Assembly (NCBI GenBank): GCA_028280285.1
Contig: JANQMA010000013.1
Coordinates: 5,355 to 69,354 of the forward strand
Direction: 5' to 3'
Length of the DNA stretch: 64,000 nt
From: Candidatus Omnitrophota bacterium
GTDB lineage: Bacteria; Omnitrophota; Gorgyraeia; Zapsychrales; Zapsychraceae
Position 1 is the stretch's first letter; every line of letters begins with the position of its first letter. This document shows, one piece after another, positions 28,901-52,920 of the stretch. The position numbers were made by a program, and so were the translations under genes. The notes beneath the pieces are model-generated. The model had not been told where the DNA came from, made no database searches, and saw nothing but the letters and a program-made list of their open reading frames with translations.

Positions 28901-29392
28901 TTGCCGGACTTTGTTCCAAAATTTTTGCCCTAATTCGCTTTCGGGGTAAGTTAAAGACGCACTTAATTGCTTTAAGAGATAATCTTGAAGCAACATATTA
29001 CGTCCAAACTCGGTTACTTCAAGCGTCTCGGTTATAATCCTGTCGTCCTCATATGGCGACAGGTTAACCCAGAGCTCTTCTTCGGGGACAGTTAAAGCGG
29101 CTAGAAAATATTTAATTAACTGTTCGGATTCTTTTGAAACATCAAGCTGCTTAAGATTTTCATCCCCAAGATTAAGAATAAAATCAAAAGCAAAGGGTTC
29201 GTTTGGATTTATAATAATTCCATTTAAGACAGGCGGATTATACGGTTGGCTGACTGAAACAAAAACCCCGGGGGCAGGAACAAATACCTCTTGAGCCGCA
29301 GCATAAGAAGCGAATATGGTTTCAAATAAAAATACCCCGGCTATAAATAAAGATAAAACTTGTTTAGAAATCCGTAAGCCCGGCATACCCAT
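22934..29392 (-). CDS. Giant secreted multidomain protein (about 2150 aa): shared N-terminal module, insertion-split phosphoglycerate-kinase-like fold, C-terminal GHKL ATPase domain, shared C-terminal tail
   Basis: Start reassigned to the internal [34 protein letters not shown] (signal peptide). The ORF-track start at 29443 would overlap the upstream giant gene by 80 nt. PGK-like motifs: [80 protein letters not shown]. GHKL motifs: KDNGIGMD and GQATGMGLA. Confidence 0.7.
   Translation of the reverse strand: [2152 protein letters not shown]
23279..23626 (-). other. GHKL/HATPase_c-like ATP-binding domain at the C-terminus of the giant ORF
   Basis: D-x-G-x-G ([10 protein letters not shown]) and G-x-G-x-G-L ([11 protein letters not shown]) boxes, ending in a [10 protein letters not shown] strand. 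Confidence 0.6.
24494..26566 (-). other. Phosphoglycerate-kinase-like fold embedded in the giant ORF (residues about 960-1650), interrupted by coiled-coil insertions of about 90-150 aa
   Basis: The order and spacing of the PGK signature blocks are preserved: R-x-D-x-N / ALPTI / SHxGRP; then SxAP...L.GKEV...RF..EE; then DAxGTAHR; then the IIGGG and TGGG loops. Confidence 0.6.
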
Positions 29393-38300: not shown

Positions 38301-40049
38301 CGTCAGATCTGATACCGATTCGTCACGCGCAATCATTGGATGAAAAGCATCCATCGCCGACTGAAAATATTCCGTTTGCTCCTCTGTAAAGTCATCATAA
38401 GTTAGATTATTGTATAAAGTAATCGACTTTTGTCTTTTCTCAAGAAGCTCCGCATAAATATCAACTTCTTCATATTGAGGTGGATTGGTAATAGCCTTAT
38501 GCGGGTAAGCTATAAAAGAAAGCGCACCCCAAGCACTAGCTAGCGCAACTAACACACTTCCGACAAGATAAGCAGGTGTTAATGCAAATCGTTTTACCTT
38601 TCTTGGCCTATCTACAACCGCATTATCAACTTCGTTTTTTTCTTCAGGCGCCGTAACTTCAATAACTTCCTGTATCGGCTCAACATCTAGATCAGCCTTT
38701 TTGATTTCCTGAAATTTTTCTTCAGCAGTTTTATTCTCAGGTGCATCGTTACTTTGCCAACTCATACGCACCTGTGTATTAATATCCAGCGATGCTGTTC
38801 CTTTTTTGCCCCCATTATCTTTTGTCACCTCAACCAGGCGGGTGTTGACGCGCGAAACATTTTCATCGCTTTGGGCAAAGCTAAATTTTTGCCCCCAATT
38901 CAAATTATCAAAATCCGTTTCAATCCGGACATTGGTATCCCCAAACGCAGGATTGGCCAGCGCCTGCAAATCAAGCCCGCCAGAGAAGTATTTCCGTGCC
39001 ACAATTTCCTGTTTTTGCGGATTGTACTCTTCCCTGATCAAATCAAAGACGCCTTGCTTAAACCCTTCAAGGTAGTGATCATAAATCTTCCGGCTGATTT
39101 GCTTGTCTTCTGTATCAACGCCTTCTGTTTTGCCGCGATCCACATAAAGCTGACTTAATAAACTCGTCTTAAGCTTTTTCTTATACCAGCCGGCAAGGAC
39201 CAAAGAATGAACAATCTGTCTTAATGACGCGAATGCCTCGCCATGGTTGATCTCATGCTCAATTTCCGGAATAATCACTGCGCGGACAATATCAGAAATG
39301 TTGGATGCCGCCGGCTCATCGCTAAGCCGGGCATGATTGGTATTTTTATCCGAGACCACATAATCTTCTTCCAGCATGGCCTTAAGCGTGCATTCAACCA
39401 CATAGGCGCTTGTGCCGTCCTCATAGATCGTTGCTTTATCGGGGACAATCCACACCTTATTAAAGGCATTGACCGGCATATTTTGATCACCGTATTGAGC
39501 GTGAATGCGTTCGTTGATACGCTCCCAAAGTTTGGCGCCAATCGAATCGGTTGTGTCATCCGGATACATCAAAGAGGCTGTCATCTGCTTAAGGACATAA
39601 TCCTGAGCCAGCACATCGCGCCCCATCAATGTATCGCCAAAAGAATCGGCAATGATGCGATCAGGCTCATCGGGCGAAAGGTTGACCCATAACTCGTTTT
39701 CGGGAATGGTTAGTGAGGCAAGAAAGTATTTGATTAACTTTTTGGCTTCGGCTTGAAAGCCTTGATCATTATTAAAATTAGTATCTCCATGATCAATAAT
39801 AAAATCAAGCTCCAAAGGATTTTCCGGATGGACGATCACGCCACGCATGAACATCGGTGTCATCGGGGCAGACTGAGTCATCATTTCCCCGACAGGAGGC
39901 AGTTTTAACACATGCGCTGGTTGTGGAACAGGAAGGCTTTGGGCCTGGGCATACTCAGGGCCAATAATTGACTGCACACCAAAGGTAAGCAGCAAAATAT
40001 AAACAATCCCCTTAAAAGAAATACTTTTTTTGTGATTTTGGAATAACAT
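29364..40049 (-). CDS. Giant (3561 aa) signal-peptide-bearing, multi-pass membrane alpha-solenoid protein; shares N-terminal module and C-terminal tail with the downstream giant ORF
   Basis: Signal peptide MLFQNHKKSISFKGIVYILLLTFGVQSIIG. At least 5 hydrophobic transmembrane-like helices are scattered through the protein (e.g. LVGSVLVALASAWGALSFIAY, TVSVVIGALIVLFLGAFYV, MIGVGIAVAILIAYFSIIGLY, TMITVLLLSGVLVWGY). It carries HEAT/PBS-type repeats (DSDPLVRERAAQAY) and is predominantly helical. No catalytic motif recognised. Confidence 0.7.
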   Translation of the reverse strand: MLFQNHKKSISFKGIVYILLLTFGVQSIIGPEYAQAQSLPVPQPAHVLKLPPVGEMMTQSAPMTPMFMRGVIVHPENPLELDFIIDHGDTNFNNDQGFQAEAKKLIKYFLASLTIPENELWVNLSPDEPDRIIADSFGDTLMGRDVLAQDYVLKQMTASLMYPDDTTDSIGAKLWERINERIHAQYGDQNMPVNAFNKVWIVPDKATIYEDGTSAYVVECTLKAMLEEDYVVSDKNTNHARLSDEPAASNISDIVRAVIIPEIEHEINHGEAFASLRQIVHSLVLAGWYKKKLKTSLLSQLYVDRGKTEGVDTEDKQISRKIYDHYLEGFKQGVFDLIREEYNPQKQEIVARKYFSGGLDLQALANPAFGDTNVRIETDFDNLNWGQKFSFAQSDENVSRVNTRLVEVTKDNGGKKGTASLDINTQVRMSWQSNDAPENKTAEEKFQEIKKADLDVEPIQEVIEVTAPEEKNEVDNAVVDRPRKVKRFALTPAYLVGSVLVALASAWGALSFIAYPHKAITNPPQYEEVDIYAELLEKRQKSITLYNNLTYDDFTEEQTEYFQSAMDAFHPMIARDESVSDLTDPVVKNVISNLAFRQEYARGVDPKALQKTVELLRRPSNDLRKAVKDEMWVFSDKLLKNKPDNGLSDEERLENFKRLTRQRIAAEEQNIKNQSRTAALRDGFVYKAISSMYWFENSYGRWMSNNTDVFFFKIIKTLKEDIRAGTVSVVIGALIVLFLGAFYVRSRPVVEEKSWLYRFVYGASIRLTLANATLMTAFIVLGTPSLGEFLVPQDSRDLSFEEKTGRYKARLPHELVENLIIEGAADNLSMSGYLINLVNVLQKNQTLDKQKEGVEAVGVQLKSIVVPALMPLMEYLAAQNMILDTELNDIFTNLTRWESTAEELQQYEQQTGKSAVDLETDTELRDFLNGLVYEILTDYYGSLTYEERKAVALLALRMRVNSMDIQRFVDVIPQAIEGDVEDKARYFEELAIWQKVKNQFAFHETFYKEKGFTEGHYNGIADGSKTLLVIPANAVQYTAEVFNRFGIERIEYIYPQRATTLAQLQVFKKKNQISSQDTVSGQLLRMMESEKTIFMIVTGGATEIQGIIDQIDFDKKQKGQANTESEAQSKKTDQDITIATIVEVPERSQQLQLVNILRDIDESLHEKPPTKDNAMLSALATLWQWPGRQWKRFRDWRSKVKTNKKFNKINERNEGDRSWDLTLDSIQRITMIGVGIAVAILIAYFSIIGLYRVPLPVAAQDSLSGILRFYRQSDVKRDVLDRRNTFAFYVLEAIKQLGDKTLFTLVLEFTLHESPRVRREAFKTNYVLAEKAPRTDNEDLNDYLWMAKEYYFKNTDVKKEDMHAAYLKAYIRLPVEERKALTRLHMHIQPMGLTPMIEDVTTLLHSLEANSEQRIKEFYADILAIAKSEPEQFKTDGELLAFVSVYPDASGDPVFQSWLKAKAYNEEVFKNTVPTMITVLLLSGVLVWGYRKSFSGAAKRKFIEKIEANYPKKLPKKIIENIVKAKDKKSRWLLSLLKTIKKLQDQKILVNRYFNRKKTKEDNLVANIRSRRDRSARVGVRRTELREPVLSEQRDAEVERILRSIRGLFKKKDQDNDKLIREKFDELIDKRSEELWSVVDRKIDNKTSRVETVYQYFADYFTQTPGKYKNYHESFRQSKSPQISNLNWLVPIYRKYLLPNGTIAFFDFEKMIYTLMAARALVNVGTEEAGRLLLEVFDIESPDSLKKEDFEDVEESDLKKVRHMQEVASKIPFEKMGLANFRLDKGKTRVFLSELAGDDFYYIYENLIIYMFQKLTEDVFIKLPEQGEDKGDYKYNKKELESRANELIGASDAAAITGLLKSAKSGAVAAKLAVATAVAGGSALEAAPRDLEIYQQREEITDVDSLIAQDNIEEYLRTKNDSKTLKELIELDRLFQEAYKANPDAAREKGRQAAIVMVNAMRDRPQSAEYADAWLERYTELFPKNDLDESIVRGLIDLLGGTNETIKRIVSKWLERSRTKNTSRLLIETIEKSNSPFAVAQALRISGLRSESFLFIKGKRAANFEGIERFLLNNRADNDIEVEAAFDALLFMSNDSYWIYDRDRKTLSRYATVATLSDRAHERLRFELNLRGADLDRESFIFSGRDFTIDITRPIAAPGLPSNPWVRVEGEYELELDNLNYGLAVSTARLLARPVRKPARELLARIATLHEKVQYRIEAVTRLAYVRGAVAKQALIDAMWDSDPLVRERAAQAYRLHTENDWRLSQKALVKKHREYNPTLSMRVLRGTTSIIENAIYQLAQARAKGLQDKESLLYLNSFGLALDRMEDQTYYSALFNAGAEHLLASYISTEFIDPRSVGFKLFYDIVFSELGVNKRKLLEARKRIRSLDARSFNQFMASMMAEPPHADMTERQKQRRIVMLLSYTQNNDPVTRDIARGGLKRYGYQPKGITFADIASGELSNVAHHFSQLGAMGDVDALNVLADVFFGSGAKDIEYGKQRETVLTYIRIARYGTAQMQAIQALGQVRRKLNQEPPTRETNSLKDLIDREFKKMGQDAFDKPARDAIYDAFQYNLAPVEFEGTLKDVSVEGRTIDLINWIANKIDVEAIERGVIKASQTKGPEATPQQIRYIRALSQMAKTAKDQRQDIYSYIIDLLERYERLGEQALNNANVDVRRELRKQLAVLNPESLINLYPTPLAGEELLNIERELRISADLWNTIVRDEDRKETIARNFLNADDKEVSFDRMVNDAFKSGVLSDDLVGATHKDFPSFVREEVFGLLGAMEGNPAKEVLSRRTADDTDPRADIPAAILMEKAWLADNTQEERDMLEAVHKGTEHENVEVRTKMFDLILGYAQKIVREIDDLENDSDARISGEAVVNRKAALYQKLRIWNDIFFPNVGQAVEYEEEGNQDIRYKATLGMTHFERGGGVRRRDTIRQDGNVGKEGANVNRDRPHRQRIDRIRDLNELILLHVRSIDDIAQMINHPNYQLRMLGVELIKQRKDYRFDVLPDGVNIIDTNLLNSLDSETNPEIFREKIELLVKRDVDANELLDYLFKRTESPNDLVAVSAFEALIYMLNPEERDRESKSYVEPNDPRILHAFIKPFINQAPKIVKQAAILGPRYMDFSNPPVRIDLFLDNEIKRDLRLLLTRTSGYSEHIEVNGITYVPEVEFAAAFAPYDFSKPGQPIPDFENYQATVDDIFLRLGIEAEGDPRELLKSADPLDRRMGATMLQEQADSDLPNFDYEHGFAALIEAAKAENLSDNKNVWVERDIYQALKSFKVTWKDLYEKLTLEEFREFVSSMLQVMKTNTDDRKTIILDAYSKEQIKIKSRPYYEPWVASWWLDLTDDFKRREALLEKDGIDIINQVFGDVESLLNIVDTNSQDPNITFQQSTEEQTIYIPLNAQLAALRREARLEQMAAQAAEEYGQEAADEAAMQKQEDDLGGINLNPDLFEWQIKRDGKGVPLPLPQQPADIYLDLKGFIPVIQNITPVNLPQLLGLNTQDFKQTPIRTTKDEVYDEEAIYELLGYRSEEYEANHKINLATRESEISDGYAGLTDF

Positions 40050-40227: not shown

Positions 40228-40272
40228 TGGGTTTTAGGTTTCAGCCTCCTAACACCCAACACCTAAAACCTT
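40228..40272. repeat. 10-bp perfect inverted repeat GGTTTTAGGT...ACCTAAAACC immediately 3' of surface protein A
   Basis: Stem GGTTTTAGGT (40228-37) / ACCTAAAACC (40263-72); TAGG/CCTA-rich. Confidence 0.4.
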
Positions 40273-43200
40273 AAGGATTAGGATGGGTTATATGACCTTC
40301 TTGATCGACCAAATATATTTGGCCATAGTAGTAAATCTTCCACGCCGGATAAAAGAAGCTCCCCTCGATATAAACCAACTCCAGCTCAGCCCCTTGCATC
40401 ATTGTACGAATAAATTCTCTTCGTTCTTTGCGCGTTAAATCTTTTTGCAATAACTTTGATAAAAGACGCAGTGCTTTGCGTTTATTAACCGGCAAATATT
40501 TAATCGGTTCGCGAACCCAGGTGACTTCACGAAAAGCACCACTATCGGCATCAACAATGGCGATGACAACTGTTCTTTTCTTTAATGTTTTTCTTAGCTT
40601 TTTAAATATTTGTTTTTTCTCTTTGCGTTCTTCTCCGCTACGCAGCTTTACACTATCAGAATCATCATCTTTAAATTCGGTCACTGTTCGTGTCATACGC
40701 TCCTTCAACTTATCTTCATCCAACGGCTTATCAAACGCAACCAGATAGTAATCGCCTTTTTCCGACGAGACATAAAGCGGCTTGCGCGCAATAGTGTTTT
40801 TAAATATTTGCGCAAAGTCTTCGTCGTATGGAACCAATTGCTCTTCAATGCCATCCACGGCCGCTTGAATAATAACAAATGCATCTTCATCAATGTGATC
40901 ACGCACATAAACATTTTTTTCTGAACCATTTTCGAGCTCAATTGTTTTAAGTTGTAGGAAATTTTCAATGCGCTTTTTAAAACGAGGTTTGGCTTTAACA
41001 ACCCGCGCTTTATTTTCTGTTTTGGGCGGCTCAACAACCGCAACAAATTTGTTGAAATTTTGTTCTGTTGGATCAATTTTAGTCAACGGCAAATAATAAT
41101 TTTGGACAAACTGCTCGGCCGTTACAAATGTATTTTCACCAATACCTGACGGGGCTGGATCATTGATCCAAAAGCCGTGAATACCATAATCCTCGGCGGT
41201 AAAAGGGTCGTCCGTAGCCCGAACCCCTTTGACAACAACCCAGTTATTATAGTCCCCGCCAAACGGCACAGCTGCCGGAATATACACCGGATGACCGTCA
41301 ACACCCGATCCAAACGGATTGTCGCTCCCGCCACCAGCGGGATAAGACACCCATTTAGCAATTTCATTAAGTGCTTCTTCTTGAGTTGCAAGTGACTTCA
41401 TGCCGAAGTTGTAATGATAAGGAACAAAATCCGGATCGAGATTCTGAATCACTTTCCAAAGCCCGCGCATATCAAGGGCATTTAAATCGTCATTTACGCC
41501 GTAGTTAAACGGCTCGCCGAATTGAAATAATAGCTCCTGATTGCTGAGCTGCTCATCAAACAATTCCGGCGGACCATCTGGATGGTCGAACCGGTTCCAC
41601 CACATATATTGAATCAACATCTTGGCCACCGCCGGACCGCTGAATTTTTCAACCGGATCAGTACCGTTATCAAGCGACCGGACATACGGAAACTTATCGG
41701 CATTAAGAACAAAGTCTTCTGACTCAACCTCAATGAAAAAACTTTGTGTATCCGTGCCGCCATTGCCGTCATCGGCAGTGATAGTTAATTCGTACTTGCC
41801 GATATCTTCTTCCTTAGGCGTCCATTCAAAAAGACCGGTTGTGCCGTCAAAAGACGCATCGCCTGGCAGATTATTGAGCGCAAGAGCTACACTATCGCCA
41901 TCTTCATCGAAAACGCTGATAGTAAAACTCAAGGTTTGACCGACTTTAATTGTTTGATCACCAGGCCCATCGATCACAGGCGGCGCATTAACAACGATAT
42001 TTTTAACCGTTAAGGTAATTGTCTCAAAATCTTCTAATTCTCCGTCGCTGACAGTAAAAGTGATTTGATATGTGCTGTCTTCATCGAGCTCCGGGGCATT
42101 GGCAATAAATGTGTTATCAACAAAGCTCATCCAAGACTCAAGACCTTGGGCTGAAAAGATTAAAGTATCTCCATCAGGATCAGAACCACTAAGTGTAAAA
42201 TTAAGTGAAGCACCTTCATTAACGTTCTTATCACCAATTGAATCGAGCATTGGCGCTCGGTTAACATTACCTACACTGATTGTAATTGTTTCACTATCAG
42301 TGAGAGACCCATCGCTCGCTGTAAACGTAACACTATAATTACCTTCATCGCCAACGTCAGGATTCGCCGCAAAAGAAGTACCATCAAAGCTCATCCAATC
42401 TTCAAGGGCATTTGTTGAAATACTAACCCCATCGCCATCCGGGTCAGAGGTCGTTACATTAAAACTCAAATTACCGCCCTCTTCGACACTTTTATTGCCA
42501 ATCGTATCCAATACCGGCGCACGGTTTGTATTATTCACCGTTATGACAATAGTCTCTGCATCTGTGCCGCCGTTACCATCATCCGCTGTAAACGTAACAT
42601 TGTAGCTACCCGCATCATTAAAACCAGGGGTAGCCGAAAAGCTAGAACCATCAAAACTCATCCATGATACAAGACCTGAAGCTTCAATGATCACATCATC
42701 CCCATCCAGATCCGTTGCATTAACAGTGAAGTTTAATACTTCCGATTCATTAACAGACCTATTACCAATCGCACCTAAGACAGGCGGTGTATTACTAAAC
42801 TTATCAGTGACAGTAATTGTGATCGTTTCTGAATCTGTTCCGTCACGCCCATCATCCACCGTAAAGGTTACATCATATGCACCGGATTGCGTGGTCGTTG
42901 GTGTCCAGGTAAAGATGCGCGTGGCCGTATCAAAAATTGCACCGACGGGAAGATTGGTTGCCGAAAAAGAAAGCGGGTCGCTGTCAGCGTCTGACCCCGA
43001 AACAGTGAACCTAAGAAGCCCTTCTTCCTCAACCGTCTTATCTCCGATTGAGTTTAGTACCGGCTGAGTGTTAGCTTTTGCTGTAACCGTTATAGTAATT
43101 GTCTCTGAGTCCGTGCCGCCGCCACCGTCGCTGACATTAAATGTCACTTGATGTGTGCCGACCTGGGATGCAAGCGGCGTCCAGAAAAATGTATTGGTGG

Positions 43201-44107
43201 TTGTATTAAAGCTGGCGCCGATCGGCAGACTCGGTGAAGAAAATGATAAAGGATCACTATCAGGGTCTGTGGCCGTCACAGTAAAACTTAGATTACTTTC
43301 TGCCTCAACATTTTTATTTCCTATAGCATCCATTTGCGGTGGATTGTTGGGCTTGTCATTGACCGTAATGGTAATTGTTTCTGAGTCTGTGCCACCGCGG
43401 CCATCACTTACTTTAAATAGAACTTGATAGATGCCGGATTGATTGTCAGTCGGAGTCCAAGAAAACATCCTGCTATTTGCATCAAAAACAGCGCCTATTG
43501 GCAAAAACTCGGCTGAAAAAGTTAACGGATCATTATTAGGATCATTCGCACTAACCGTAAACGCCAACTCGCTTTCTTCATCAATCTCTTTATTCCCGAT
43601 GGAATCAAGAATAGGGCTCGCATTACCACCGCCACCGCCGGCAACCGTCACAGAACCATTTACTATGTTTTCAACACTGGCCGTTGCTGACTGATCACTT
43701 AAATCAAATTGAAGAAGATTAATAGGGGTTGTGCCCGTGGGTGCTGTATTTTTGATTTTAAATGTAAAAACCAATGCCTCGCCAGATACATCCGACACGG
43801 CGGAAAAGCTGAATTGCGTTACAATAACTTCTCCTTCTTCAGGAGAATGAGAATTACTGGCAAAGTCAGGAAACGTGGAACCATTCTCAACAGAAACAAA
43901 CTCCAAAACATCTTTATCCCAAGACAACTTGGTATCTATCCCGATGACATCAAGGTCATTATCCGAAAATTGAAGAGTTATGGTAATCTCATCACCCGGC
44001 ATACCGGACGCACTCGAAAGCTCTCCATCATAAGCAAAGGCATTAGCCGTCAAGGCAATGAAAAATAAACTAAGGAAAAGTATTTTTTTCACGAAAGCTC
44101 TATTCAC
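40271..44107 (-). CDS. Giant surface protein A (1278 aa): signal peptide, cohesin-like domain, 7 He_PIG (Ig-like) repeats, conserved C-terminal domain
   Basis: Signal peptide MNRAFVKKILFLSLFFIALTANAFA; cohesin-like YDGELSSASGMPGDEITITLQFSD...ALVFTFKIKN...NGSVTV. Repeats of the form P.LD.IGNK.V.E...L.FTVSA.DPD.DPL.FSA..LP.GA.FD..T..F.WTP...Q.G...V.F.VSDG.GGTDSETITITV. It overlaps the next gene (B) by 8 nt. Confidence 0.75.
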   Translation of the reverse strand: MNRAFVKKILFLSLFFIALTANAFAYDGELSSASGMPGDEITITLQFSDNDLDVIGIDTKLSWDKDVLEFVSVENGSTFPDFASNSHSPEEGEVIVTQFSFSAVSDVSGEALVFTFKIKNTAPTGTTPINLLQFDLSDQSATASVENIVNGSVTVAGGGGGNASPILDSIGNKEIDEESELAFTVSANDPNNDPLTFSAEFLPIGAVFDANSRMFSWTPTDNQSGIYQVLFKVSDGRGGTDSETITITVNDKPNNPPQMDAIGNKNVEAESNLSFTVTATDPDSDPLSFSSPSLPIGASFNTTTNTFFWTPLASQVGTHQVTFNVSDGGGGTDSETITITVTAKANTQPVLNSIGDKTVEEEGLLRFTVSGSDADSDPLSFSATNLPVGAIFDTATRIFTWTPTTTQSGAYDVTFTVDDGRDGTDSETITITVTDKFSNTPPVLGAIGNRSVNESEVLNFTVNATDLDGDDVIIEASGLVSWMSFDGSSFSATPGFNDAGSYNVTFTADDGNGGTDAETIVITVNNTNRAPVLDTIGNKSVEEGGNLSFNVTTSDPDGDGVSISTNALEDWMSFDGTSFAANPDVGDEGNYSVTFTASDGSLTDSETITISVGNVNRAPMLDSIGDKNVNEGASLNFTLSGSDPDGDTLIFSAQGLESWMSFVDNTFIANAPELDEDSTYQITFTVSDGELEDFETITLTVKNIVVNAPPVIDGPGDQTIKVGQTLSFTISVFDEDGDSVALALNNLPGDASFDGTTGLFEWTPKEEDIGKYELTITADDGNGGTDTQSFFIEVESEDFVLNADKFPYVRSLDNGTDPVEKFSGPAVAKMLIQYMWWNRFDHPDGPPELFDEQLSNQELLFQFGEPFNYGVNDDLNALDMRGLWKVIQNLDPDFVPYHYNFGMKSLATQEEALNEIAKWVSYPAGGGSDNPFGSGVDGHPVYIPAAVPFGGDYNNWVVVKGVRATDDPFTAEDYGIHGFWINDPAPSGIGENTFVTAEQFVQNYYLPLTKIDPTEQNFNKFVAVVEPPKTENKARVVKAKPRFKKRIENFLQLKTIELENGSEKNVYVRDHIDEDAFVIIQAAVDGIEEQLVPYDEDFAQIFKNTIARKPLYVSSEKGDYYLVAFDKPLDEDKLKERMTRTVTEFKDDDSDSVKLRSGEERKEKKQIFKKLRKTLKKRTVVIAIVDADSGAFREVTWVREPIKYLPVNKRKALRLLSKLLQKDLTRKERREFIRTMMQGAELELVYIEGSFFYPAWKIYYYGQIYLVDQEGHITHPNP

Positions 44108-47100
44108 TGTTTTCTTCAGTAGTTACATTATGGTTATGATCGACGATGTGGGTCTCACCATTAAAGGACACCCTCCAGCTCGGATAGTATACTTCCCCTG
44201 TATTAATCAACTCGGCCTCAGCTCCATTGATATTATTTACACCAAGGTGATCGGCAACTATCTGTAATGCATCAGCCGACTTAACCGGCAAGTAATTGAC
44301 AGGCCCCTGCGTCCATGTGATTTCCCTCAACTTTCCTGCAGAAGCATCAATAATCGCAACAGCTATGACGCCGTTTTGATCTACTGCTTCATCTGAAGGA
44401 GTAAAGGAAACAATGTAGTAATCACCTGTTTGTGATTTAACGAATAACGGCAGATTAACTTCAACATCTTTAAGTAGTTCAGCTAATCGTTCATCATACG
44501 CGACAACCTCACCCGTTACACGATCAGTAGCCGCACGGATTAATTCTTCGCTGTCTTCAACGGCGTAACTTAGCTGAGCCGTTTGCTCAACCACAGTACC
44601 GTATCCTCCTAAAGTCCCAGAATCAATCAACGATACATAGCGACCCCGGTTCGGATCATTGAGTGTGACATCAGTCAATGGAGCAACATAGTTCGCCGCA
44701 AACTCCTCGGCTGTGACATACGCTTGCTGGCCCAGTCCTGTAACGTGTGGATTCATAATCCAGAAACCATGAATGCCGTACTCTGCAGCCGCACTTGGAT
44801 TATCTGTTGCACGAACACCTGTAACCACAACCCAGTTGTCATAACTTCCTCCAACCGGCACTGCCGCCGGTACATACACCGGATGACCTTCACCCTGACC
44901 TATCTCTGTTGCCAGAAGATTAGCAATGTCGCTTAAAGCTTCTCGCTTAGACGTACGGCTGGCAATTATCCAATCGTAATTATACGGTGTATATGCCGGA
45001 TCAAGGTTTTGTAGTACGGTCCATAGACCCTGAGCATCCAGGCGGTCAAGCGTCTGATTAACCGCGTAGTTTTCCACCTGACCGAAATCAAATAAGGCCA
45101 ATTGATCGTTATGAACTTTTTCTGCATCTGTTGCAGGACCTTCTGGATTAACGTCTGCATTCCACCATAGATAATCTAATATCATCTGCGCTGCTGCTGT
45201 CGCACTATACTGCTTAATCAATTCATCTTCAGTTATTGTTTCTTCTTGCGCTGCAAAGCTTGCCTGCACATCTTCAACCGGCTCTAACTCCAAGCCCTTT
45301 GAACTGATTGCCGGCACATTAGAGAGGTTATTCGTAAATCCTTGTGCAGTGCTTGTCTCATATCGAACCGCTCCATCCGTCTGCCAATCCTGATTCACAA
45401 ACGACCAGACTTGCGCATAGACCGGATTACCGTTTAAAGGAATCTCAACTGTTGCCTGGGTTTGAAGACCAGCACTTTGGGAATAAATATCGGTTCCACC
45501 CGGCGTTGTTCCAATGGCAAACCAGTATTGTGCGGCATTGTTTTTCTGTTTCCAACTAAAAGTAACAGGAGAACTATTTAACGTCGAGCCCGGCTCAGGC
45601 GATGTTATCTGAGGATTATTTTCCGTATTGTACTGAACCGCCCCATCGCTCAGCCAATCCTGATTCACAAACGACCAGACTTGTGCATAGACCGGACTGC
45701 CGTTTAGAGGAATCTCAACTGTTGCCTGGGTCTGAAGACCAGCACTTTGGGAATAAATATCGGTTCCACCCGGCGTTGTCCCAATGGCAAACCAATATTG
45801 TGCGGCATTGTTTTTCTGTTTCCAATTAAAAGTAACAGGAGAACTATTTAACGTCGAGCCCGGCTCAGGCGATGTTATCTGCGATACAACCTCCGTATTA
45901 TATTGAATTGTTCCTTCTGTCTCCCAAACACCGTTCATTAATGTCCAGACCTGCGCATAGACCGGATTACCGTTTAAAGGAATCTCAACTGTTGCCTGGA
46001 TCTGAAGACCGGCACTTTGGGAATAAATATCGGTTCCACCCGGCGTTGTCCCAATGGCAAACCAATACTTTTGCACTCCTGATGTACTTGTCCAACTGAA
46101 TGTTACAGGCGAAGAGCTTAAAGTTGTCCCTGGTGATGGCGATGTTATTTGGGAGGCCTCAGCACCTGGATTCACCGTGATTGTAATCGTCTCTGAATCT
46201 GTAAGTTGTCCGTCGCTGACAGTAAATGTGACGCTATGATTACCAGCGTGTGCATTCGTAGGCACCCATCTAAACATTTTATTGCTTTGGGTAAATTCGG
46301 CACCAGGAGGTAAATTTTGTGCCGAGTATGTCAACGTATCTCCATTTGGATCAGTCGCGCTTATCGTAAAGCTCATATTTTGATTCGCATTAACGGACCT
46401 ATTGCCAATGGGTGCTAGTACCGGGGCCTGCTGCGGCACCGCTTCGACTGTAATGGAAACAATTTGTGCATCTGTACCGCCATTACCGTCACTTACATTA
46501 AACGTTACATTGTGTGTACCGATTTGACTGGCCGTTGGAAACCATCTAAACAGATTAGATTGTGCATTAAATTCGGCACCCGAAGGCAAATTTTGCGCTG
46601 AGTATGTTAGCACGTCGCCATCATCATCCGTAGCACTGACAACAAAATTAACATTATCGCCAACCCTGGCCGTCTTGTTTGGTATATTGTTAAGTACCGG
46701 CGGGCTGTTGAGTCCATTGACAGTGATCGTTATTGTTTGAGAAGAGCTTCCTCCATTAATATCGGAGGCAACAAATGTGACTTCGTGCACACCTTCCTGG
46801 TCAAATGTTGGCCGCCAAGAGAAAAATCCGCTAAATGAATTTACAACCGCGCCTTGTGGCATTTGTGCGCCGTATAATACTGTGCTGCCCTCTGGATCAT
46901 TAGCCTTAACAGTAAATGTTAATCTTTCCCCTATAGTAATTACTTGATTGCCAATCGGCTCAAAGAGGGGCGGAAGATTGCCATCGCGCTCTATAACAGT
47001 TATAGTAATCGTCTCTTCATCCGTACCGCCCTCTATGTCGCCGGCGATAAGCGTAATTTCATGTATACCTACTTGATCATCGGTTGGCTGCCAAGAGAAG

Positions 47101-48845
47101 GCACCGAATATATTCAAAACAGCTCCCTCTGGTAAATTGTTTGAACCGTATATGACAACGTTTCCATCAGGATCGGTTGCTTTTATGGTAAAAAACAATG
47201 TTTGACCGGCCTTGGCCGTCTTATCGCCTATCGGCTCCAGAATAGGCGGAAGATTGCCTCCGGCACCTGTAACTGTGATTGTAATCGTTTCAGAGTCGGT
47301 TAACTCACCATCACTAACATTGAATGTCACATCATGTGTACCAATTTGATTTGAACTAGGAGTCCAGCTGAATGTACGCGTGCTTGAATTAAAATCAGCC
47401 CCTGACGGAATTCCATTGGCTGAATAGCTGAGTGTATCTCCATCAGGATCCGTTGCGCTAATGGTAAAATTTAAACTGCTGTCTGCTGCAACATTTTTAT
47501 TTCCAATACCTGCCAAAACAGGCGCCCTGTTTTGTTGTGAAGTAACTGTGATCGTAATTGTTTCCGAATCCGTATCTTGACCATCGGTTACACTAAAGGT
47601 TACTTGATGGGTACCGGCTTGATTAGAAGTCGGCGTCCAATTAAATGTTCGCGTGTTTGGGTTAAAATCAGCGCCTGAAGGAGCATTGTCTGCTGAATAG
47701 GTAAGCGGATCTCCGTCTAAATCGGTTGCACTGATAGTAAAATTTAGATTATTTTCTGCCTGAACATTTTTATTACCTATAGTTGCTAACTCCGGCGGAT
47801 TATTTGGCTCCGAAGTAACTGTGACCGTGACTATTTCAAAATCTGTATCCTTGCCATCAGTTACGCTGAATGTTATATCGTGTGTGCCAATTTGAGCTGC
47901 CGTTGGCGTCCAACTGAATGTCCGTGTAGTTGGATTAAAGGCAGCACCCGTCGGTGTGTTTTCAGCAGAATACGTTAATACATCCCCTGCGTCCGGATCA
48001 ATCGCATTAATAGGGAAACTCAAATTATTGCCTGCCTGGACACTTTTATTGCCTATCGTTTGCAACACCGGCGGATTATTAACCGCTTCTGTAACCGTAA
48101 TCGTAATCGTCTCGGAATCTGTGCCGCCAGCACCATCATTAACATTAAAAATTACATCATGTGTCCCGATATCATTAATGCTTGGCGTCCAATTAAAGAT
48201 TCTTGTCGTTGGATTAAAGACGGCGCCAGTTGGTGTATTTTGGGCCGAATAAGTCAATGTGTTTCCATCAGGGTCGGTTGCACTGATAGTAAAATTTAAA
48301 TTGGCACCTACTTGAACACTTTTATCCCCAATCGCCGCTAATACTGGCGGTCGGTTTACCGAGCCCCCGGTTATTGTGATTTTTCCATCTGTACGGCTTG
48401 TCGCACTTGTTGTTGTCGTATCACTAAAGTCATATAATTCAAAACCAAGCGGTGTATCTCCACCCGGTGCATTGGCCTTAACCGTAAAACGTAATTTAAG
48501 CGATTCACCATTACCGTTGGTTGATACAGGAAGAGTTCCAAATTGAACAACAATCAATCTGTTAGCATTATTTGAGTCAACTAAGGCGGTAACATTAGTT
48601 AACTGAGCCGTATCGGCCCCGGCCACGGCACTGTCAAATGTAAGCACATTTGAGTCAAAAGTGACCACTGTATCGATACCTGCTAAGGCATCGGTGATAC
48701 CTCCCGCGTTGGTATAGTTGACCGAGATCTCAACCGTCTCTCCAGGGTCAGCTGTAGTACTAGATAGCGCACCCTCAAAGGCTAGTGCATTTGTGCTTAG
48801 CAATAATGTGAAGAATAAACTAAAAGATGCAATTAACTGTTTCAT
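44100..48845 (-). CDS. Giant surface protein B (1581 aa): signal peptide, cohesin-like domain, 8 He_PIG repeats, 3 near-identical 90-aa beta-repeats, conserved C-terminal domain
   Basis: Cohesin-like FEGALSSTTADPGETVEISVNYTNAGG...TFDSNVLTFDSAVAG...SLKLRFTVKANAPGGDTPLGF...DGKITIT. C-terminal domain ...HPVYVPAAVPVGGSYDNWVVVTGVRATDNP...YYPSWRVSFNGETHIVDHNHNVTTEE. Confidence 0.75.
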   Translation of the reverse strand: MKQLIASFSLFFTLLLSTNALAFEGALSSTTADPGETVEISVNYTNAGGITDALAGIDTVVTFDSNVLTFDSAVAGADTAQLTNVTALVDSNNANRLIVVQFGTLPVSTNGNGESLKLRFTVKANAPGGDTPLGFELYDFSDTTTTSATSRTDGKITITGGSVNRPPVLAAIGDKSVQVGANLNFTISATDPDGNTLTYSAQNTPTGAVFNPTTRIFNWTPSINDIGTHDVIFNVNDGAGGTDSETITITVTEAVNNPPVLQTIGNKSVQAGNNLSFPINAIDPDAGDVLTYSAENTPTGAAFNPTTRTFSWTPTAAQIGTHDITFSVTDGKDTDFEIVTVTVTSEPNNPPELATIGNKNVQAENNLNFTISATDLDGDPLTYSADNAPSGADFNPNTRTFNWTPTSNQAGTHQVTFSVTDGQDTDSETITITVTSQQNRAPVLAGIGNKNVAADSSLNFTISATDPDGDTLSYSANGIPSGADFNSSTRTFSWTPSSNQIGTHDVTFNVSDGELTDSETITITVTGAGGNLPPILEPIGDKTAKAGQTLFFTIKATDPDGNVVIYGSNNLPEGAVLNIFGAFSWQPTDDQVGIHEITLIAGDIEGGTDEETITITVIERDGNLPPLFEPIGNQVITIGERLTFTVKANDPEGSTVLYGAQMPQGAVVNSFSGFFSWRPTFDQEGVHEVTFVASDINGGSSSQTITITVNGLNSPPVLNNIPNKTARVGDNVNFVVSATDDDGDVLTYSAQNLPSGAEFNAQSNLFRWFPTASQIGTHNVTFNVSDGNGGTDAQIVSITVEAVPQQAPVLAPIGNRSVNANQNMSFTISATDPNGDTLTYSAQNLPPGAEFTQSNKMFRWVPTNAHAGNHSVTFTVSDGQLTDSETITITVNPGAEASQITSPSPGTTLSSSPVTFSWTSTSGVQKYWFAIGTTPGGTDIYSQSAGLQIQATVEIPLNGNPVYAQVWTLMNGVWETEGTIQYNTEVVSQITSPEPGSTLNSSPVTFNWKQKNNAAQYWFAIGTTPGGTDIYSQSAGLQTQATVEIPLNGSPVYAQVWSFVNQDWLSDGAVQYNTENNPQITSPEPGSTLNSSPVTFSWKQKNNAAQYWFAIGTTPGGTDIYSQSAGLQTQATVEIPLNGNPVYAQVWSFVNQDWQTDGAVRYETSTAQGFTNNLSNVPAISSKGLELEPVEDVQASFAAQEETITEDELIKQYSATAAAQMILDYLWWNADVNPEGPATDAEKVHNDQLALFDFGQVENYAVNQTLDRLDAQGLWTVLQNLDPAYTPYNYDWIIASRTSKREALSDIANLLATEIGQGEGHPVYVPAAVPVGGSYDNWVVVTGVRATDNPSAAAEYGIHGFWIMNPHVTGLGQQAYVTAEEFAANYVAPLTDVTLNDPNRGRYVSLIDSGTLGGYGTVVEQTAQLSYAVEDSEELIRAATDRVTGEVVAYDERLAELLKDVEVNLPLFVKSQTGDYYIVSFTPSDEAVDQNGVIAVAIIDASAGKLREITWTQGPVNYLPVKSADALQIVADHLGVNNINGAEAELINTGEVYYPSWRVSFNGETHIVDHNHNVTTEENSE
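45348..46160 (-). repeat. Three tandem near-identical ~270-bp (90-aa) coding repeats inside surface protein B
   Basis: Protein units QITSPEPGSTLNSSPVTF.WKQKNNAAQYWFAIGTTPGGTDIYSQSAGLQTQATVEIPLNG.PVYAQVW...W...GAV.Y.T repeated three times. Shadow ORFs on the plus strand (45344, 45602, 45872) recur with a 258-270 bp period, which shows high DNA identity. Confidence 0.85.
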
Positions 48846-48871: not shown

Positions 48872-51800
48872 TTATTCAATACTTTCTTCAGTAGTGACAT
48901 TATGGTTGTGATCAACAATGTGGGTCTCACCATTAAAGTACACCCTCCAGCTTGGATAGTATACTTCCCCTGTATTGATCAACTCAGCTTCAACCCCACC
49001 TAACTCACTTACTCCAATCTTATCACTCACTAATTGAAGCGCTGTTTCAAGATCCATCGGTTCATAATCAACCGCCTCTAAACTCCATGTCACTTCCTTT
49101 AATACACCACTCTGGGCATCAACCGCCGCAACAGCAATCACGCCCTTCTGACCCGTTGCCTCATCTTTCACAGTAAACGGCACTATATAGTAGTCGCCAT
49201 TCGCATCTGTAACAACCACCGGCAACTTCGCTCCGACACTCTTAAATACTTCCGCTAACCCTTCATCATATGCTACCACTTCATCCAACACTCCCGCAAG
49301 AGCTGCTGAAACCAACCTGTTAGCTTCCGTTATACTGTAATTGAGCCGATACACACTCTGTGTACTGCCATTAACTTCCACCTCCGTAAATACTTGCTCT
49401 ATATTAATCGGTGTATCAAGTTGTGTCTCTAACTCAGCAACAGATCCTCTGCGACTTCCTTCAATAGCTGCATCTACAATCGATACGTATCGACCATAAT
49501 GAGGATCTTCTATGGCTGTTTCTGTTAGTGCTGTAATATAGTTATCAGCAAATTCCTTTGCTGTCACGTACACTTTTTCTCCTGGCCCCTTAACCTGTGG
49601 ATTATTGATCCAGAAGCCGTTGATTTTATACTTTTCTGCTTCACTTGGATTATCTGTTGCGCGGACACCCGTTACCACCACCCACTGATCATAGCCTCCT
49701 TTAACAGGAACCGCCGCCGGTACATACACAGGATGCCCTTCTACTTGACCGACTTCTGTGGCTAGAAGATTAGCGATATCGCTTAATACTTCTTCTTTGG
49801 AGGCGCGATCAGTAATGACCCAATTGTAATTGTATAAATCACTCTCAGGGCCGTAGATTTGAAGCACTTCTTTTAGCCCCTTAGCGTCTAGGCGATTAAG
49901 TTCACTGTTGGCGGTATAGTTTTCCCATTGTCCTTCATCGAACAGAGTGATTTGATTGTTGTATGTTTCTTCTGCGTCTATGACCGGACCTTCTGGATTA
50001 ACGTCTGCATTCCACCACAGATAATCTAATATCATCTGCGCTGCTGCTGTCGCACTATACTGCTTAATCAATTCATTTTCAGTTATTGTTTCTTCTTGCG
50101 CTGAAAAGCTTGCCTGCACATCTTCAACCGGGTCTAACTCCAAGCCCTTTGAACTGATTGCCGGGACATTAGTCAGGTTGTTGAAAAACACTCCTGTCGT
50201 TGATGTTTTATATTCAACGGTACCCGTTGTCTCCCATGCTCCATCGATCAACGTCCAGAGTTGAGCATATAATGGATCTCCTGTTATTGGAAGACTCAAT
50301 TCAGGGGTTGATTGTGTTTCAACGCCCTCCTCTACTTCTATACCAAAGGTTTGGAGATAGATTCCGTTTTTTGCTGTCCCGATCGCAAACCAATATTTTT
50401 TTGCATCAGGTGACGCATTGAATGTAAAGGTTTGTTTCTCTTCAGTCAATGTTGTTCCGGGCGTTGGTGATTGTATTTCCGATATAACCGGTGGAAGATT
50501 TTCTGTTTGATATTCAACAGAGCCGGTTGTCTTCCACACACCATCGATGAGTGTCCATACTTGGGCATAAACGGGATTACCGGTTAATGGAACTCTAAGT
50601 GCAGGTGTTTCTGTCTCAAGCCCCATGCTAAACGAATGCAGATCAGTTCCACCCGCAACTGTCCCTAAAGCAAACCAGTATTGCCGTGCATCAGGGGATT
50701 CGGTGATTGTGAACACTTGTTTCTTCTCAGACAATGTCGTTTCTGCGGTCGGCGACTTAATCTCAGCCACAATGTCCGGAACATTTTCTGTTTGATATTC
50801 AACGCTGCCGGTTGTCTTCCACACACCATCAATGAGTGTCCACACTTGCGCATAAACAGGATTACCGGTTAATGGAATTTTAACCTCAGGTGTTTGTGTT
50901 TCAAGTTTCATACTAAACGACTGCAGATCAGTACCGCCCGCAACCGTTCCGAGCGCAAACCAGTATTCTGATGCATCAGGCGATTCAGTAATCGTGAATG
51001 CTTGTTTTTTGTTCGATAGCGTTGTTCCAGATGTCGGTGTTTGTATTTCTGAGATCACATCCGGAATATTCTGTGTCGTGTATTCAACAGCACCTGTTGT
51101 TTCCCACACATTATCAATGAGCGTCCACACTTGCGCATAAACAGAATTACCTGTCAACGGCACACTAAGCTCAGGTGTTGCTATAGTTTCCACATCGTTT
51201 TGGACAGGAATACCGAAAGAGTGTAAATCCGTTCCGCCTTCAGTTGTCCCGAGCGCAAACCAATATTGCTCTGCATCAGGCGATGCCGTTATTGTAAAGA
51301 TCTGTTTCTTTTTCGATAGCGCTATCGCCGTTGTTGGCGATTCAATTACAGAAATTATAGACCCCTCCGTAACAGTGATGGTGATCGTTTCCGAATCAGT
51401 CAACTCTCCGTCACTTACATTGAAGGTAACCATGAAGGTACCGGCTTGATCGACGGCCGGCATCCAGTTAAATGTACTTGGAGCAACTTCGTTAAAAGTC
51501 GCGCCTTCCGGTAGATTTTGGGCAGTAATATTTAACGGGTCTAGATCTGGGTCGGTTGCATCTACTATAAAAGTTAATAAGCGCCCCGTTTGTACTGATT
51601 TATTGCCAACCGGCGTGAGAACCGGCGGCCGGTTACCTATCACCGTTATTGTGATTGTTTCAGAATCTGTGCCACCATTACCATCGTCAACACTAAATAT
51701 TACATCATGTGTACCGATATCATTAATGGTTGGCGTCCAGCTAAATGTGCGCGTGGTTGAATCAAAATTCGACCCTGCAGGCGCATCTTCAGCAGAAAAA

Positions 51801-52660
51801 GTCAAATTATCTTCATCTTCATCGGTTGCATTAATAATGAAATTCAAATTATTTCCCACTTGTACTGATTTATTGCCAATGGCTTCCAACACCGGATCAG
51901 TGTTTGGTTTTTCAGTGACTGTGATTGTAATTGTTTCAGAATCAGTGCCGCCATTCCCATCATCAACACTAAACGTTACATCATACGTTCCGACATCATC
52001 AATGGTCGGCGTCCAGCCGAATACTTGCGTATCCACATCAAACTCCGCACCGGTTGGCAGATTTTCTGCCTTAAACGTTAAGTCATCTTCATCCGGATCA
52101 GTCGCACTAATAGTAAAGTTCAAACTGCGTCCAGCCTCCACACTTTGATTGTCAATTGGGTCCAAAACAGGATCTTGATTAACCCCGGTAACCGTAACTT
52201 TTCCGTTAGTAAGATTTGTTGCGCTTGTTGTTTGCGTGTCACTAAAATCATATAAACCAAAATTAAGCGGAGTATCGCCTCCCGGGGCGTTCGCTTTAAT
52301 CGTAAATTTAACCTTTGCCGACTCTCCGCTACCACTTATTGATATTGGAGTAAATCCAAACTGTGTGATAATTAATCTATTATCATCATTCGTATCTATT
52401 AAAGCAGTGACGCCTAGTTGAGCCGTGTCCGCTCCTGCCGAAACACTATCATAGGTAAGCACACTGGAATCAAAATTAATAACTGTATCAATCCCTGCCA
52501 GGGCATCGGTAATATCCCCTGCACCGGTATATGTCACCGAAACTTCAACCGTTTCTCCTGGATTTCCAGATACGCCGGATATTGCCCCATCGAAAGCCAA
52601 AGCTTCCGCCGTAATAATCAAACTGGCAATCATTATTAAAACAAAGAATATTTTTTTCAT
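48872..52660 (-). CDS. Giant surface protein C (about 1262 aa): signal peptide, cohesin-like domain, 3 He_PIG repeats, 5 divergent ~95-aa beta-repeats, conserved C-terminal domain
   Basis: Start reassigned to MKKIFFVLIMIASLIITAEALA (signal peptide). Cohesin-like FDGAISGVSGNPGETVEVSVTYTGAGD.... The C-terminal domain and the tail YYPSWRVYFNGETHIVDHNHNVTTEE are almost identical to those of protein B. Confidence 0.75.
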   Translation of the reverse strand: MKKIFFVLIMIASLIITAEALAFDGAISGVSGNPGETVEVSVTYTGAGDITDALAGIDTVINFDSSVLTYDSVSAGADTAQLGVTALIDTNDDNRLIITQFGFTPISISGSGESAKVKFTIKANAPGGDTPLNFGLYDFSDTQTTSATNLTNGKVTVTGVNQDPVLDPIDNQSVEAGRSLNFTISATDPDEDDLTFKAENLPTGAEFDVDTQVFGWTPTIDDVGTYDVTFSVDDGNGGTDSETITITVTEKPNTDPVLEAIGNKSVQVGNNLNFIINATDEDEDNLTFSAEDAPAGSNFDSTTRTFSWTPTINDIGTHDVIFSVDDGNGGTDSETITITVIGNRPPVLTPVGNKSVQTGRLLTFIVDATDPDLDPLNITAQNLPEGATFNEVAPSTFNWMPAVDQAGTFMVTFNVSDGELTDSETITITVTEGSIISVIESPTTAIALSKKKQIFTITASPDAEQYWFALGTTEGGTDLHSFGIPVQNDVETIATPELSVPLTGNSVYAQVWTLIDNVWETTGAVEYTTQNIPDVISEIQTPTSGTTLSNKKQAFTITESPDASEYWFALGTVAGGTDLQSFSMKLETQTPEVKIPLTGNPVYAQVWTLIDGVWKTTGSVEYQTENVPDIVAEIKSPTAETTLSEKKQVFTITESPDARQYWFALGTVAGGTDLHSFSMGLETETPALRVPLTGNPVYAQVWTLIDGVWKTTGSVEYQTENLPPVISEIQSPTPGTTLTEEKQTFTFNASPDAKKYWFAIGTAKNGIYLQTFGIEVEEGVETQSTPELSLPITGDPLYAQLWTLIDGAWETTGTVEYKTSTTGVFFNNLTNVPAISSKGLELDPVEDVQASFSAQEETITENELIKQYSATAAAQMILDYLWWNADVNPEGPVIDAEETYNNQITLFDEGQWENYTANSELNRLDAKGLKEVLQIYGPESDLYNYNWVITDRASKEEVLSDIANLLATEVGQVEGHPVYVPAAVPVKGGYDQWVVVTGVRATDNPSEAEKYKINGFWINNPQVKGPGEKVYVTAKEFADNYITALTETAIEDPHYGRYVSIVDAAIEGSRRGSVAELETQLDTPINIEQVFTEVEVNGSTQSVYRLNYSITEANRLVSAALAGVLDEVVAYDEGLAEVFKSVGAKLPVVVTDANGDYYIVPFTVKDEATGQKGVIAVAAVDAQSGVLKEVTWSLEAVDYEPMDLETALQLVSDKIGVSELGGVEAELINTGEVYYPSWRVYFNGETHIVDHNHNVTTEESIE

Positions 52661-52706
52661 TATATTTTCCTCGATTGATAACAGCTTTGATCGAATCATA
52701 TATTAT

Positions 52707-52920
52707 TTATTCTTCCACTGGAAATTTATCGATAAATGTCACTGTAAATTGTGCAATTAACGCCGCATCCAGAGCATTGATTCTTCCGTCACCGCTTACA
52801 TCCGCACGCACTTGCGCATCCGGATCAAGCGTAATGAATGTAACGGTATGCTGCGCCGTTAATGCCGCATCAAGCGCATTAATTGTTCCATTATTATTGA
52901 CATCGCCATAAGCGATATCG
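52707..52920 (-). other. Dockerin module (two 22-residue F-hand segments)
   Basis: GDVNNNGTINALDAALTAQHTVTFITLDPDAQVRADVSGDGRINALDAALIAQFTVTFI. Confidence 0.8.

Follow-up and report, generated by a model that had tools for sequence, protein, structure and literature searches.

A three-part C-terminal module, possibly a ligand-binding unit with a degenerate peptidase-like lobe, in three tandem proteins of a Candidatus Omnitrophota bacterium

A stretch of 64,000 nucleotides from contig JANQMA010000013.1 of a Candidatus Omnitrophota bacterium (hereafter the window) encodes three tandem proteins, here termed A, B and C, that end in a shared module of about 380 residues. The module is predicted to form one rigid unit, consisting of an N-terminal lobe (N-lobe) that probably derives from a C39-type peptidase and of two PepSY-like units. 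We tentatively suggest that it is a rigid, non-catalytic ligand-binding unit. Although the module folds confidently in prediction, neither Pfam-A (2025 copy) nor NCBIfam (2026) holds a model for it, so that the composite module and its family are missing from both databases; the component folds are probably known ones.

The shared module, its predicted fold and its family

Each C-terminal region, when searched against the window with tblastn, recovers the other two copies as its sole matches, giving three copies in total, with identities of 33% for A–B (E 2e-83 to 4e-85), 61% for B–C (E ~1e-171) and 33% for A–C (C-terminal domain). Judged by these alignments, the likeness among the three modules is real and far above chance. 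An earlier note on this DNA had described the three proteins as ending colinearly; its coordinates are good to ~100 bp, and the motifs it quoted are present in the translations. All three proteins start with a signal peptide and contain many Ig-like repeats of the He_PIG/Big_9 type (Pfam). In B, the first conserved strand of the module begins at F1169 (45341) and the match to the family profile at about residues 1196-1210, the envelope of the family hidden Markov model (HMM) spanning 1196-1580. B ends in hydrophilic sequence (...HNVTTEENSE) that includes neither a transmembrane segment nor a sorting motif, and the PepSY-like part of A carries two loop insertions rich in Lys, Glu and Arg.

AlphaFold2, run with 33 diverse family members, models the module of B over 379 residues (residue 1 of the model being residue 1203 of B) with a predicted local distance difference test score (pLDDT) of 90.8 and a predicted template modelling score (pTM) of 0.90, which argues for a single compact rigid unit and bears out the earlier proposal of a discrete folded domain. 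With the three window sequences only, the model is poor (pLDDT 38.6). In the model, the N-lobe is laid out as helices followed by a beta-sheet. Unit 1 comprises two helices (H230-256 region) and a beta-sheet, with the motifs YDExLA and GDYYIVSF, and unit 2 comprises helix H321-332 and four strands and holds EVYYPSWRVSFNGETHIVD, the motif of the tail named in the earlier note.

The predicted arrangement of the last unit, a helix plus four strands, resembles that of PepSY domains (PF03413), which are known from M4 peptidase propeptides (FTP-PepSY, such as 4k90 chain B), YpeB and tandem PepSY-like lipoproteins (4exr). The family consensus of the C-terminal half matches Pfam PepSY at E 1.2e-4 and 22.7 bits, short of the cut-off of 24, and two of the 33 members match at E 0.03; A, B and C themselves give no Pfam PepSY match. 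The most probable Foldseek match in the PDB is the fungalysin propeptide 4k90_B (E 5.9e-3, probability 0.77), followed by the lipoprotein 4exr (E 3.4e-2, probability 0.63), both of which contain PepSY; the low TM-scores (template modelling scores) of these matches arise because the whole three-part model served as the query. Unit 1 is recognisable as PepSY-like from the predicted structure only, and an internal duplication relating the two units is not significant (P 0.09). PepSY domains are known from the propeptides of proteases and as inhibitory elements (Yeats 2004). The units of the module differ from them in being C-terminal and permanently fused to an inactive-looking peptidase-like lobe, so that there is no obvious protease to inhibit. 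As a separate observation, the sole Foldseek match below E 1e-3 is an unnamed viral protein of 588 residues in BFVD, A0A6G5YLZ4 (E 2.8e-4, probability 0.96, 343 aligned columns).

To define the family, 1.84 billion representatives (clusters at 50% identity, metagenomes) had to be searched exhaustively with a profile, since a word-indexed protein search yielded 11 matches with the family alignment and none, B itself included, with the domain of B. In the exhaustive search, 469 of the representatives match at E<=1e-3, of which 134 also pass E<=1e-30. The top three matches are A, B and C (P0003, P0002 and P0001, respectively), B being an exact match, and the next relatives follow at E 6e-145 to 1e-30 over profile positions ~47-437. 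The family is defined by the motifs xG[PA]A.A.M.L.Y, P..VP, Y.[NH]W, GFW.[ND]P, G[IL]G and DYY..PF; A, B and C match the profile over its full length, carry the motifs and hold the module near the terminus. Counts over 150 members given below refer to the best 150 of the 469, and residue counts to a sample of 62 sequences. In ~120 of the 150 the domain ends <=30 residues from the C-terminus. Among the domains found upstream or elsewhere in the same proteins are Peptidase_C25 with its propeptide, Peptidase_M14, Peptidase_S8, NosD/beta-helix, Cohesin and Flg_new_2 repeats, to which precomputed annotation adds CBM_6 and PF13088. A family model would give an annotation to the C-terminal part of many proteins of uncultivated lineages, namely secreted peptidases, beta-helix proteins and scaffolds with cohesins.

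The earlier note had named a clear match to a characterised family as a result that would make the domain non-novel. None was found: neither the modules of A, B and C nor the 33-member alignment gives a threshold match in Pfam, NCBIfam or PDB sequences; matches in the PDB sequence and profile searches to ParB, the GM2 activator and a ThiJ-family protein are at chance level only. A scan with the domain of B finds no relative in 185,579 species genomes, the family consensus has no tblastn match in 50,697 phage genomes or in a plasmid collection, and no description of the composite module was found in the searchable literature.

Two further features lie upstream of the module. Main-clade members P0016-P0060 show before it the conserved strand motif (Y/F)-L-(D/N)-L-x-(D)-F-P-x-Y-x-A-E, which reads FVLNADKFPYVRS in A and FTNNLSNVPAISS in B and lies upstream of the start of the AlphaFold2 model. 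Between the He_PIG repeats and the module, B (residues ~897-1160, about 45365-46155) and C (residues ~455-830, about 50210-51335) hold three and four copies, respectively, of the same repeat of ~95-110 residues, with the pattern …SPxPGTTLSSSPVTFSW…YWFAIGTTPGGTDIYSQS…PVYAQVW…, which has no Pfam family at E<=1e-3 and just a weak match to Big_7.

The N-lobe, its catalytic positions and their conservation

Across the family, the first motif of the N-lobe reads [S/C/T]-G-[PA]-A-V-A-Q-M-x-L-x-Y-x-W-W-N, and further motifs are G-H-P-x-H-V-P, Y-x-N-W-M-A-V-R-G, G-F-W-V-N-D-P and G-I-G-E-N-x-Y-K-T. C39 domains present colinear motifs, namely [C/S]G[PA]A..M.L.Y where the first helix begins, an aromatic-rich strand at the position of the His and xNDP at that of the Asp, and the predicted order of helices and strands may resemble that of the C39 fold. 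A profile of 62 N-lobe sequences was compared by hhalign with a C39 profile of 124 sequences, built from the domains of CvaB, LahT, ComA and PCAT1 (PDB search) and 120 homologues. The two align with P 7e-4 over 118 colinear columns, the Cys, His and Asp-Pro of C39 being paired with family positions 51, 174 and 202-203. The four-sequence C39 template gives P 0.0024 and a score of 26, against 9-17 for 40 column-shuffled controls, 10.1 for the reversed control and 13.5 for the C-terminal half. At default settings, the profile comparison aligned just the 21-column Cys-helix motif. The best-scoring member, P0017, matches Peptidase_C39_2 at E 0.025 and 15.6 bits (cut-off 24) in a match that begins at the Cys motif; A, B and C give no match to Peptidase C39 and C39_2 (PF03412, PF13529). 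Of the folds that the earlier note had put forward for testing, PepSY and C39-like are the sole ones to give a signal, in both cases below threshold. Taken as a sequence argument, the profile comparison makes it fairly probable, if unproven, that the N-lobe is a degenerate descendant of a C39-type peptidase.

The N-lobe nevertheless departs from C39 domains in several respects. It is larger (~210 residues compared with ~140) and contains large insertions, and most family members have Asn in place of the His. In addition, the module is C-terminal on secreted proteins, rather than N-terminal on an ABC exporter, and the N-lobe is always fused to two PepSY-like units.

Not a single cysteine is present in the modules of A, B and C, in line with the earlier remark that no Cys-His pair is obvious. 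With Ser at position 51, Asn or Gln at position 174 and, in B and C, Asn at position 202, the N-lobes of the window cannot be cysteine peptidases; the xDP motif reads WINDP in A, WIMNP in B and WINNP in C. Within the wider family, His174 occurs in 24 of the 150 members, the usual residue being Asn, and the combination of Cys51 with His174 in none of the 150. Cys51 might pair with Cys145 in a disulfide, though Cys145 is found also with Ser or Thr at position 51. The columns that never vary in the family are occupied by Gly, Pro, Trp, Tyr, Met and Ala and include no polar catalytic residue. The segment aligned with the His and Asp strands of C39 is, however, the best-conserved part of the module, and such a combination of lost catalytic residues and a conserved pseudo-site would be expected if a pseudo-enzyme had retained its binding cleft. 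The nucleophile is also missing from the C39-like domain of HlyB, which is reportedly inactive and binds substrate (Lecher 2012); by analogy, binding rather than cleavage is suggested for the N-lobe.

Conservation of the pseudo-site has to be separated from the high identity that B and C share for another reason. Across the linker and first helix (tract 1), B and C are 96% identical at the nucleotide level (194 bp) and show 0-1 synonymous differences in every 30 codons, whereas the flanks are ~60% identical and saturated at synonymous sites. On this codon comparison, tract 1 is a recent gene conversion between B and C. A second tract is 89% identical over 126 bp with lowered synonymous divergence, and elsewhere in the B–C alignment a shared amino acid is encoded by different codons in approximately half of the cases. 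The second tract underlies the sequence AELINTGEVYYPSWRV(S/Y)FNGETHIVDHNHNVTTEE that the earlier note had called an exact tail; it is present in the translations of B and C but absent from A, and, being largely the product of gene conversion, it is weak evidence of constraint. Across the wider family the tail shrinks to the motif SPYYPxW...V.Q.G. The near-identity of B and C thus stems largely from a source other than selection, and apparently invariant stretches of tandem paralogues may reflect gene conversion instead of functional constraint. Nor does the module stay conserved while the upstream repeats diverge, as had been supposed, since identity in the cohesin/He_PIG region is 41%, 46% and 56% for A–B, A–C and B–C, respectively (blastp), compared with 33%, 33% and 61% in the module.

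Constraint is seen instead at domain positions 151-250, the region of the pseudo-site, where the mean pairwise identity of the family is 0.49 (A–B 0.50) as opposed to 0.30-0.39 elsewhere. Here B and C retain 77-83% amino acid identity although synonymous sites are saturated, which points to purifying selection.

Candidate functions of the module

We favour, tentatively, a role in ligand binding. A, B and C would be secreted fibrillar proteins composed of a signal peptide, an N-terminal cohesin, an Ig-like stalk and the C-terminal module, in which the alpha+beta N-lobe, probably a degenerate relative of C39/papain-like peptidase domains, and PepSY-like units 1 and 2 would pack as one rigid body. 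The former substrate cleft could hold a peptide or a cell-surface ligand, in the manner of the C39-like domain of HlyB, and the resulting binding head would target the protein to which it is attached: here a scaffold whose cohesin would recruit the dockerin protein encoded nearby, and in other members C25, M14 and S8 peptidases and beta-helix proteins. Such a module would be another dead enzyme turned recognition module, as well as a clue to how fibrillar cohesin proteins and adjacent giants engage surfaces. A more far-reaching version, which we consider decidedly unlikely as it stands, would see a plug-in docking head, in which a fossil C39 lobe braced by two PepSY-like units reads a peptide or envelope epitope; within the surface structures of uncultivated diderms it would add a third, enzyme-derived connector to cohesin and dockerin and would direct scaffolds, as well as secreted peptidases, towards prey or partner cells.

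Several results weigh against a binding head of C39 descent. The hhalign probability for the N-lobe and C39 is 26% (12% with the four-sequence template), below accepted confidence; the N-lobe consensus has no Pfam match; and searches of HMM against sequence, whether run from the family to C39 or the reverse, give no significant match. At the level of structure, Foldseek finds nothing in the PDB at E<=1e-3 with the whole model, its top 50 matches include no peptidase, and PepSY-like unit 1 is without sequence-level support. The clustering of conserved residues in a cleft is a prediction from the alignment. Finally, Ser or Thr at position 51, His174 and Asp202 occur together in ~20 of the 150 members (~13%), and part of the family may have a non-canonical hydrolase activity.

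Alternatively, the module might anchor the protein to the cell envelope, a view that we regard as unlikely though by no means far-fetched. It would tether the fibril by its C-terminal end, through non-covalent contacts, to the outer membrane, lipopolysaccharide, peptidoglycan or S-layer of the producing cell itself, with the N-terminal cohesin displayed at the tip. Anchoring scaffoldins have such an arrangement, with a distal cohesin and an SLH or sortase anchor at the C-terminus, and the N-terminal cohesin, spacer repeats, C-terminal module and adjoining dockerin gene of the window all have their counterpart there. The order of signal peptide, cohesin, Ig-like stalk and extreme C-terminal module fits this view, as do the dockerin protein encoded next door, the porin gene within the same gene string and the module being the last domain in most members, among them secreted enzymes with no other recognisable anchor. 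Unlike in cellulosome anchoring scaffoldins, however, there is a single cohesin per protein, no carbohydrate-active enzyme is encoded in the window and the module belongs to neither the SLH nor the LPXTG type; Pfam scans reveal no similarity to a known wall- or membrane-binding module, and no conserved neighbourhood indicates an envelope receptor. Moreover, several members carry a separate sorting or anchoring device after the module. A C-terminal tail resembling those of the type IX secretion system (T9SS) follows it in six of the 150, the tail of P0067 matches Por_Secre_tail at E 2e-5 and 25.2 bits (under the Pfam cut-off of 27), and P0091 has a dockerin-like tail, as judged by eye. In P0084, the order is cohesin, module, dockerin, which would make the module cargo. 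These tails and dockerins weaken a pure anchor and count against a sorting signal.

A C-terminal pro-domain or export helper is a poor candidate. The module would then be an intramolecular chaperone, an inhibitor or a recognition element of the type II secretion system (T2SS), removed or irrelevant after export. The PepSY-like units and the frequent fusion to C25, M14 and S8 peptidases are consistent with such a role, and a comparison is offered by the prepeptidase C-terminal (PPC) domains, which secreted peptidases carry. With PPC domains and the T9SS C-terminal domain the module shares a C-terminal position on secreted peptidases (C25, M14 and S8), but it is composite and four to five times larger than either, and a T9SS-like tail can be present in addition to it. 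In the case of P0004, the gene comes right after a complete T2SS operon, which comprises GspE, F, G, H, K, PilM/N/O-like genes and the GspD secretin (locus L085 1-14587, ENA ERZ28655704, on a 729-kb contig). The window, on the other hand, contains no T2SS, the module is found also on non-enzymes (cohesin scaffolds) and beta-helix proteins, no processing site is evident, and purifying selection on the cleft-like region of a large rigid unit exceeds what a leader would need.

It is very unlikely that the module is an active hydrolase or autoprocessing domain, which would cut the fibril or a target using Ser51 with His158 or His161, or Ser/Thr51, His174 and Asp202. A, B and C all have Ser51 and His158, and His161, present in 49 of the 62 sequences, seems to swap with position 158 between clades, the window copies having GHPVY and their nearest relatives GYPVH; the members noted above with Ser/Thr51, His174 and Asp202 would likewise fit. 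Yet no polar residue is invariant across the family, position 51 varies (Ser in 24 of the 62 sequences, Cys in 19, Thr in 14 and Ala in 4, with Asn also found), Cys51 and His174 never combine, the window copies have no cysteine and Asp202, found in 59 of the 62, is lost in B and C.

A C-terminal secretion or sorting signal, akin to the T9SS C-terminal domain or PEP-CTERM and raised already in the earlier note, has next to no chance of being correct: the extreme C-terminal position on many secreted proteins is as expected, but a unit of ~380 residues in three sub-domains is much above known sorting signals, a separate T9SS-like tail (one near the Por_Secre_tail cut-off) or dockerin follows the module within the same protein in other members, the hydrophilic C-terminus lacks a sorting motif, and A, B and C have no Pfam match to Por_Secre_tail, SLH, LPXTG or PEP-CTERM-type sorting or anchor domains.

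Cohesins, dockerin and gene neighbourhood

Pfam Cohesin is detected in A and C, so the earlier description of three cohesin-bearing proteins holds directly for these two; for B, where Pfam does not report Cohesin even at E<=1, it relies on ~70% identity to C, and the N-terminus of B appears to be a divergent cohesin beyond the reach of the Pfam model. A window-wide scan finds one dockerin, at the C-terminus of an 875-residue protein with five Lamin Tail Domains (LTD) that is encoded next to C, and this dockerin is presumed to be the partner of the cohesins of A, B and C. Cohesins on A and C (on B by homology) and a dockerin on the adjacent LTD protein would together make up a cohesin-dockerin scaffold system, with one dockerin for three cohesin proteins in the gene string. 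The host appears to be a diderm because a porin gene lies in the cluster. By sequence, the PurB of the window is closest to one from a Desulfobacterales metagenome-assembled genome, at 63% identity, which places the uncultivated organism loosely only. The features are collected in Table 1.

Table 1. Features of the window, with strand and basis of assignment; the last eight rows list the gene string in transcription order
Feature	Coordinates	Strand	Details and basis
A C-terminal module, aa 799-1278	40274-41713	minus	tblastn, alignment, translation check
B C-terminal module, aa 1164-1581	44103-45356	minus	tblastn, alignments
C C-terminal module, aa 832-1275	48875-50206	minus	tblastn, alignment, translation check
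B N-lobe, aa 1203-1412 (model residues 1-210)	44610-45239	minus	AlphaFold2 secondary structure, hhalign to C39
B PepSY-like unit 1, aa 1430-1516 (model residues 228-314)	44298-44558	minus	AlphaFold2, Foldseek
B PepSY-like unit 2, aa 1522-1577 (model residues 320-375)	44115-44282	minus	AlphaFold2, family consensus against Pfam PepSY (below cut-off)
Position 51 (C39 Cys)	B S1214 at 45204-45206		A Ser, B Ser, C Ser
Position 174 (C39 His)	B N1337 at 44835-44837		A Asn, B Asn, C Gln
Position 202 (C39 Asp)	B N1365 at 44751-44753		A Asp, B Asn, C Asn
A motif SGPAVAKM, contains S823	41618-41641	minus	translation
A motif NWVVV	41231-41245	minus	translation
A motif FWINDP	41156-41173	minus	translation
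C motif SATAAAQM	50033-50056	minus	translation
C motif QWVVV	49673-49687	minus	translation
C motif FWINNP	49598-49615	minus	translation
Gene-conversion tract 1, linker + first helix	B 45136-45329 = C 49986-50179	minus	nucleotide and codon comparison
B/C high-identity tract 2, underlies tail	B 44101-44226 = C 48873-48998	minus	nucleotide and codon comparison
A cohesin, aa 30-155	43643-44020	minus	Pfam Cohesin E 1.6e-11
B cohesin (putative)	48372-48776	minus	~70% identity to C
C cohesin	52190-52582	minus	Pfam Cohesin E 5.2e-9
Dockerin	52752-52910	minus	Pfam Dockerin_1 E 5.8e-13, window-wide scan
LTD + CotH protein, also CHB_HEX_C	56836-60393	minus	Pfam
Porin (Porin_5)	55492-56766	minus	Pfam
Five LTD + dockerin, directly upstream of C	52707-55334	minus	Pfam
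Protein C	48872-52699	minus	open reading frame, 1275 aa
Protein B	44100-48845	minus	open reading frame, 1581 aa
Protein A	40271-44107	minus	open reading frame, 1278 aa
3561-aa protein, directly downstream of A	29364-40049	minus	marginal HEAT_2 only
2169-aa protein, PGK-like (aa 965-1193) + HATPase_c	22934-29443	minus	Pfam

No gene neighbourhood is conserved across distant family members. The pairing of A with the giant protein directly downstream is kept at one metagenome locus (L087), where the gene after an A-like one (P0006) encodes a giant of ~3,600 residues, homologous to the 3561-residue protein and 51% identical to it over the first 368 residues. The closest relative with the same architecture of cohesins, He_PIG repeats and module is P0004, from a Candidatus Omnitrophota metagenome-assembled genome, and its NCBI name, 'tandem-95 repeat protein', reflects the Ig-like repeats only. 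At the end of the gene string, the 2169-residue protein combines a phosphoglycerate-kinase-like region with HATPase_c, an unusual pairing within one protein.

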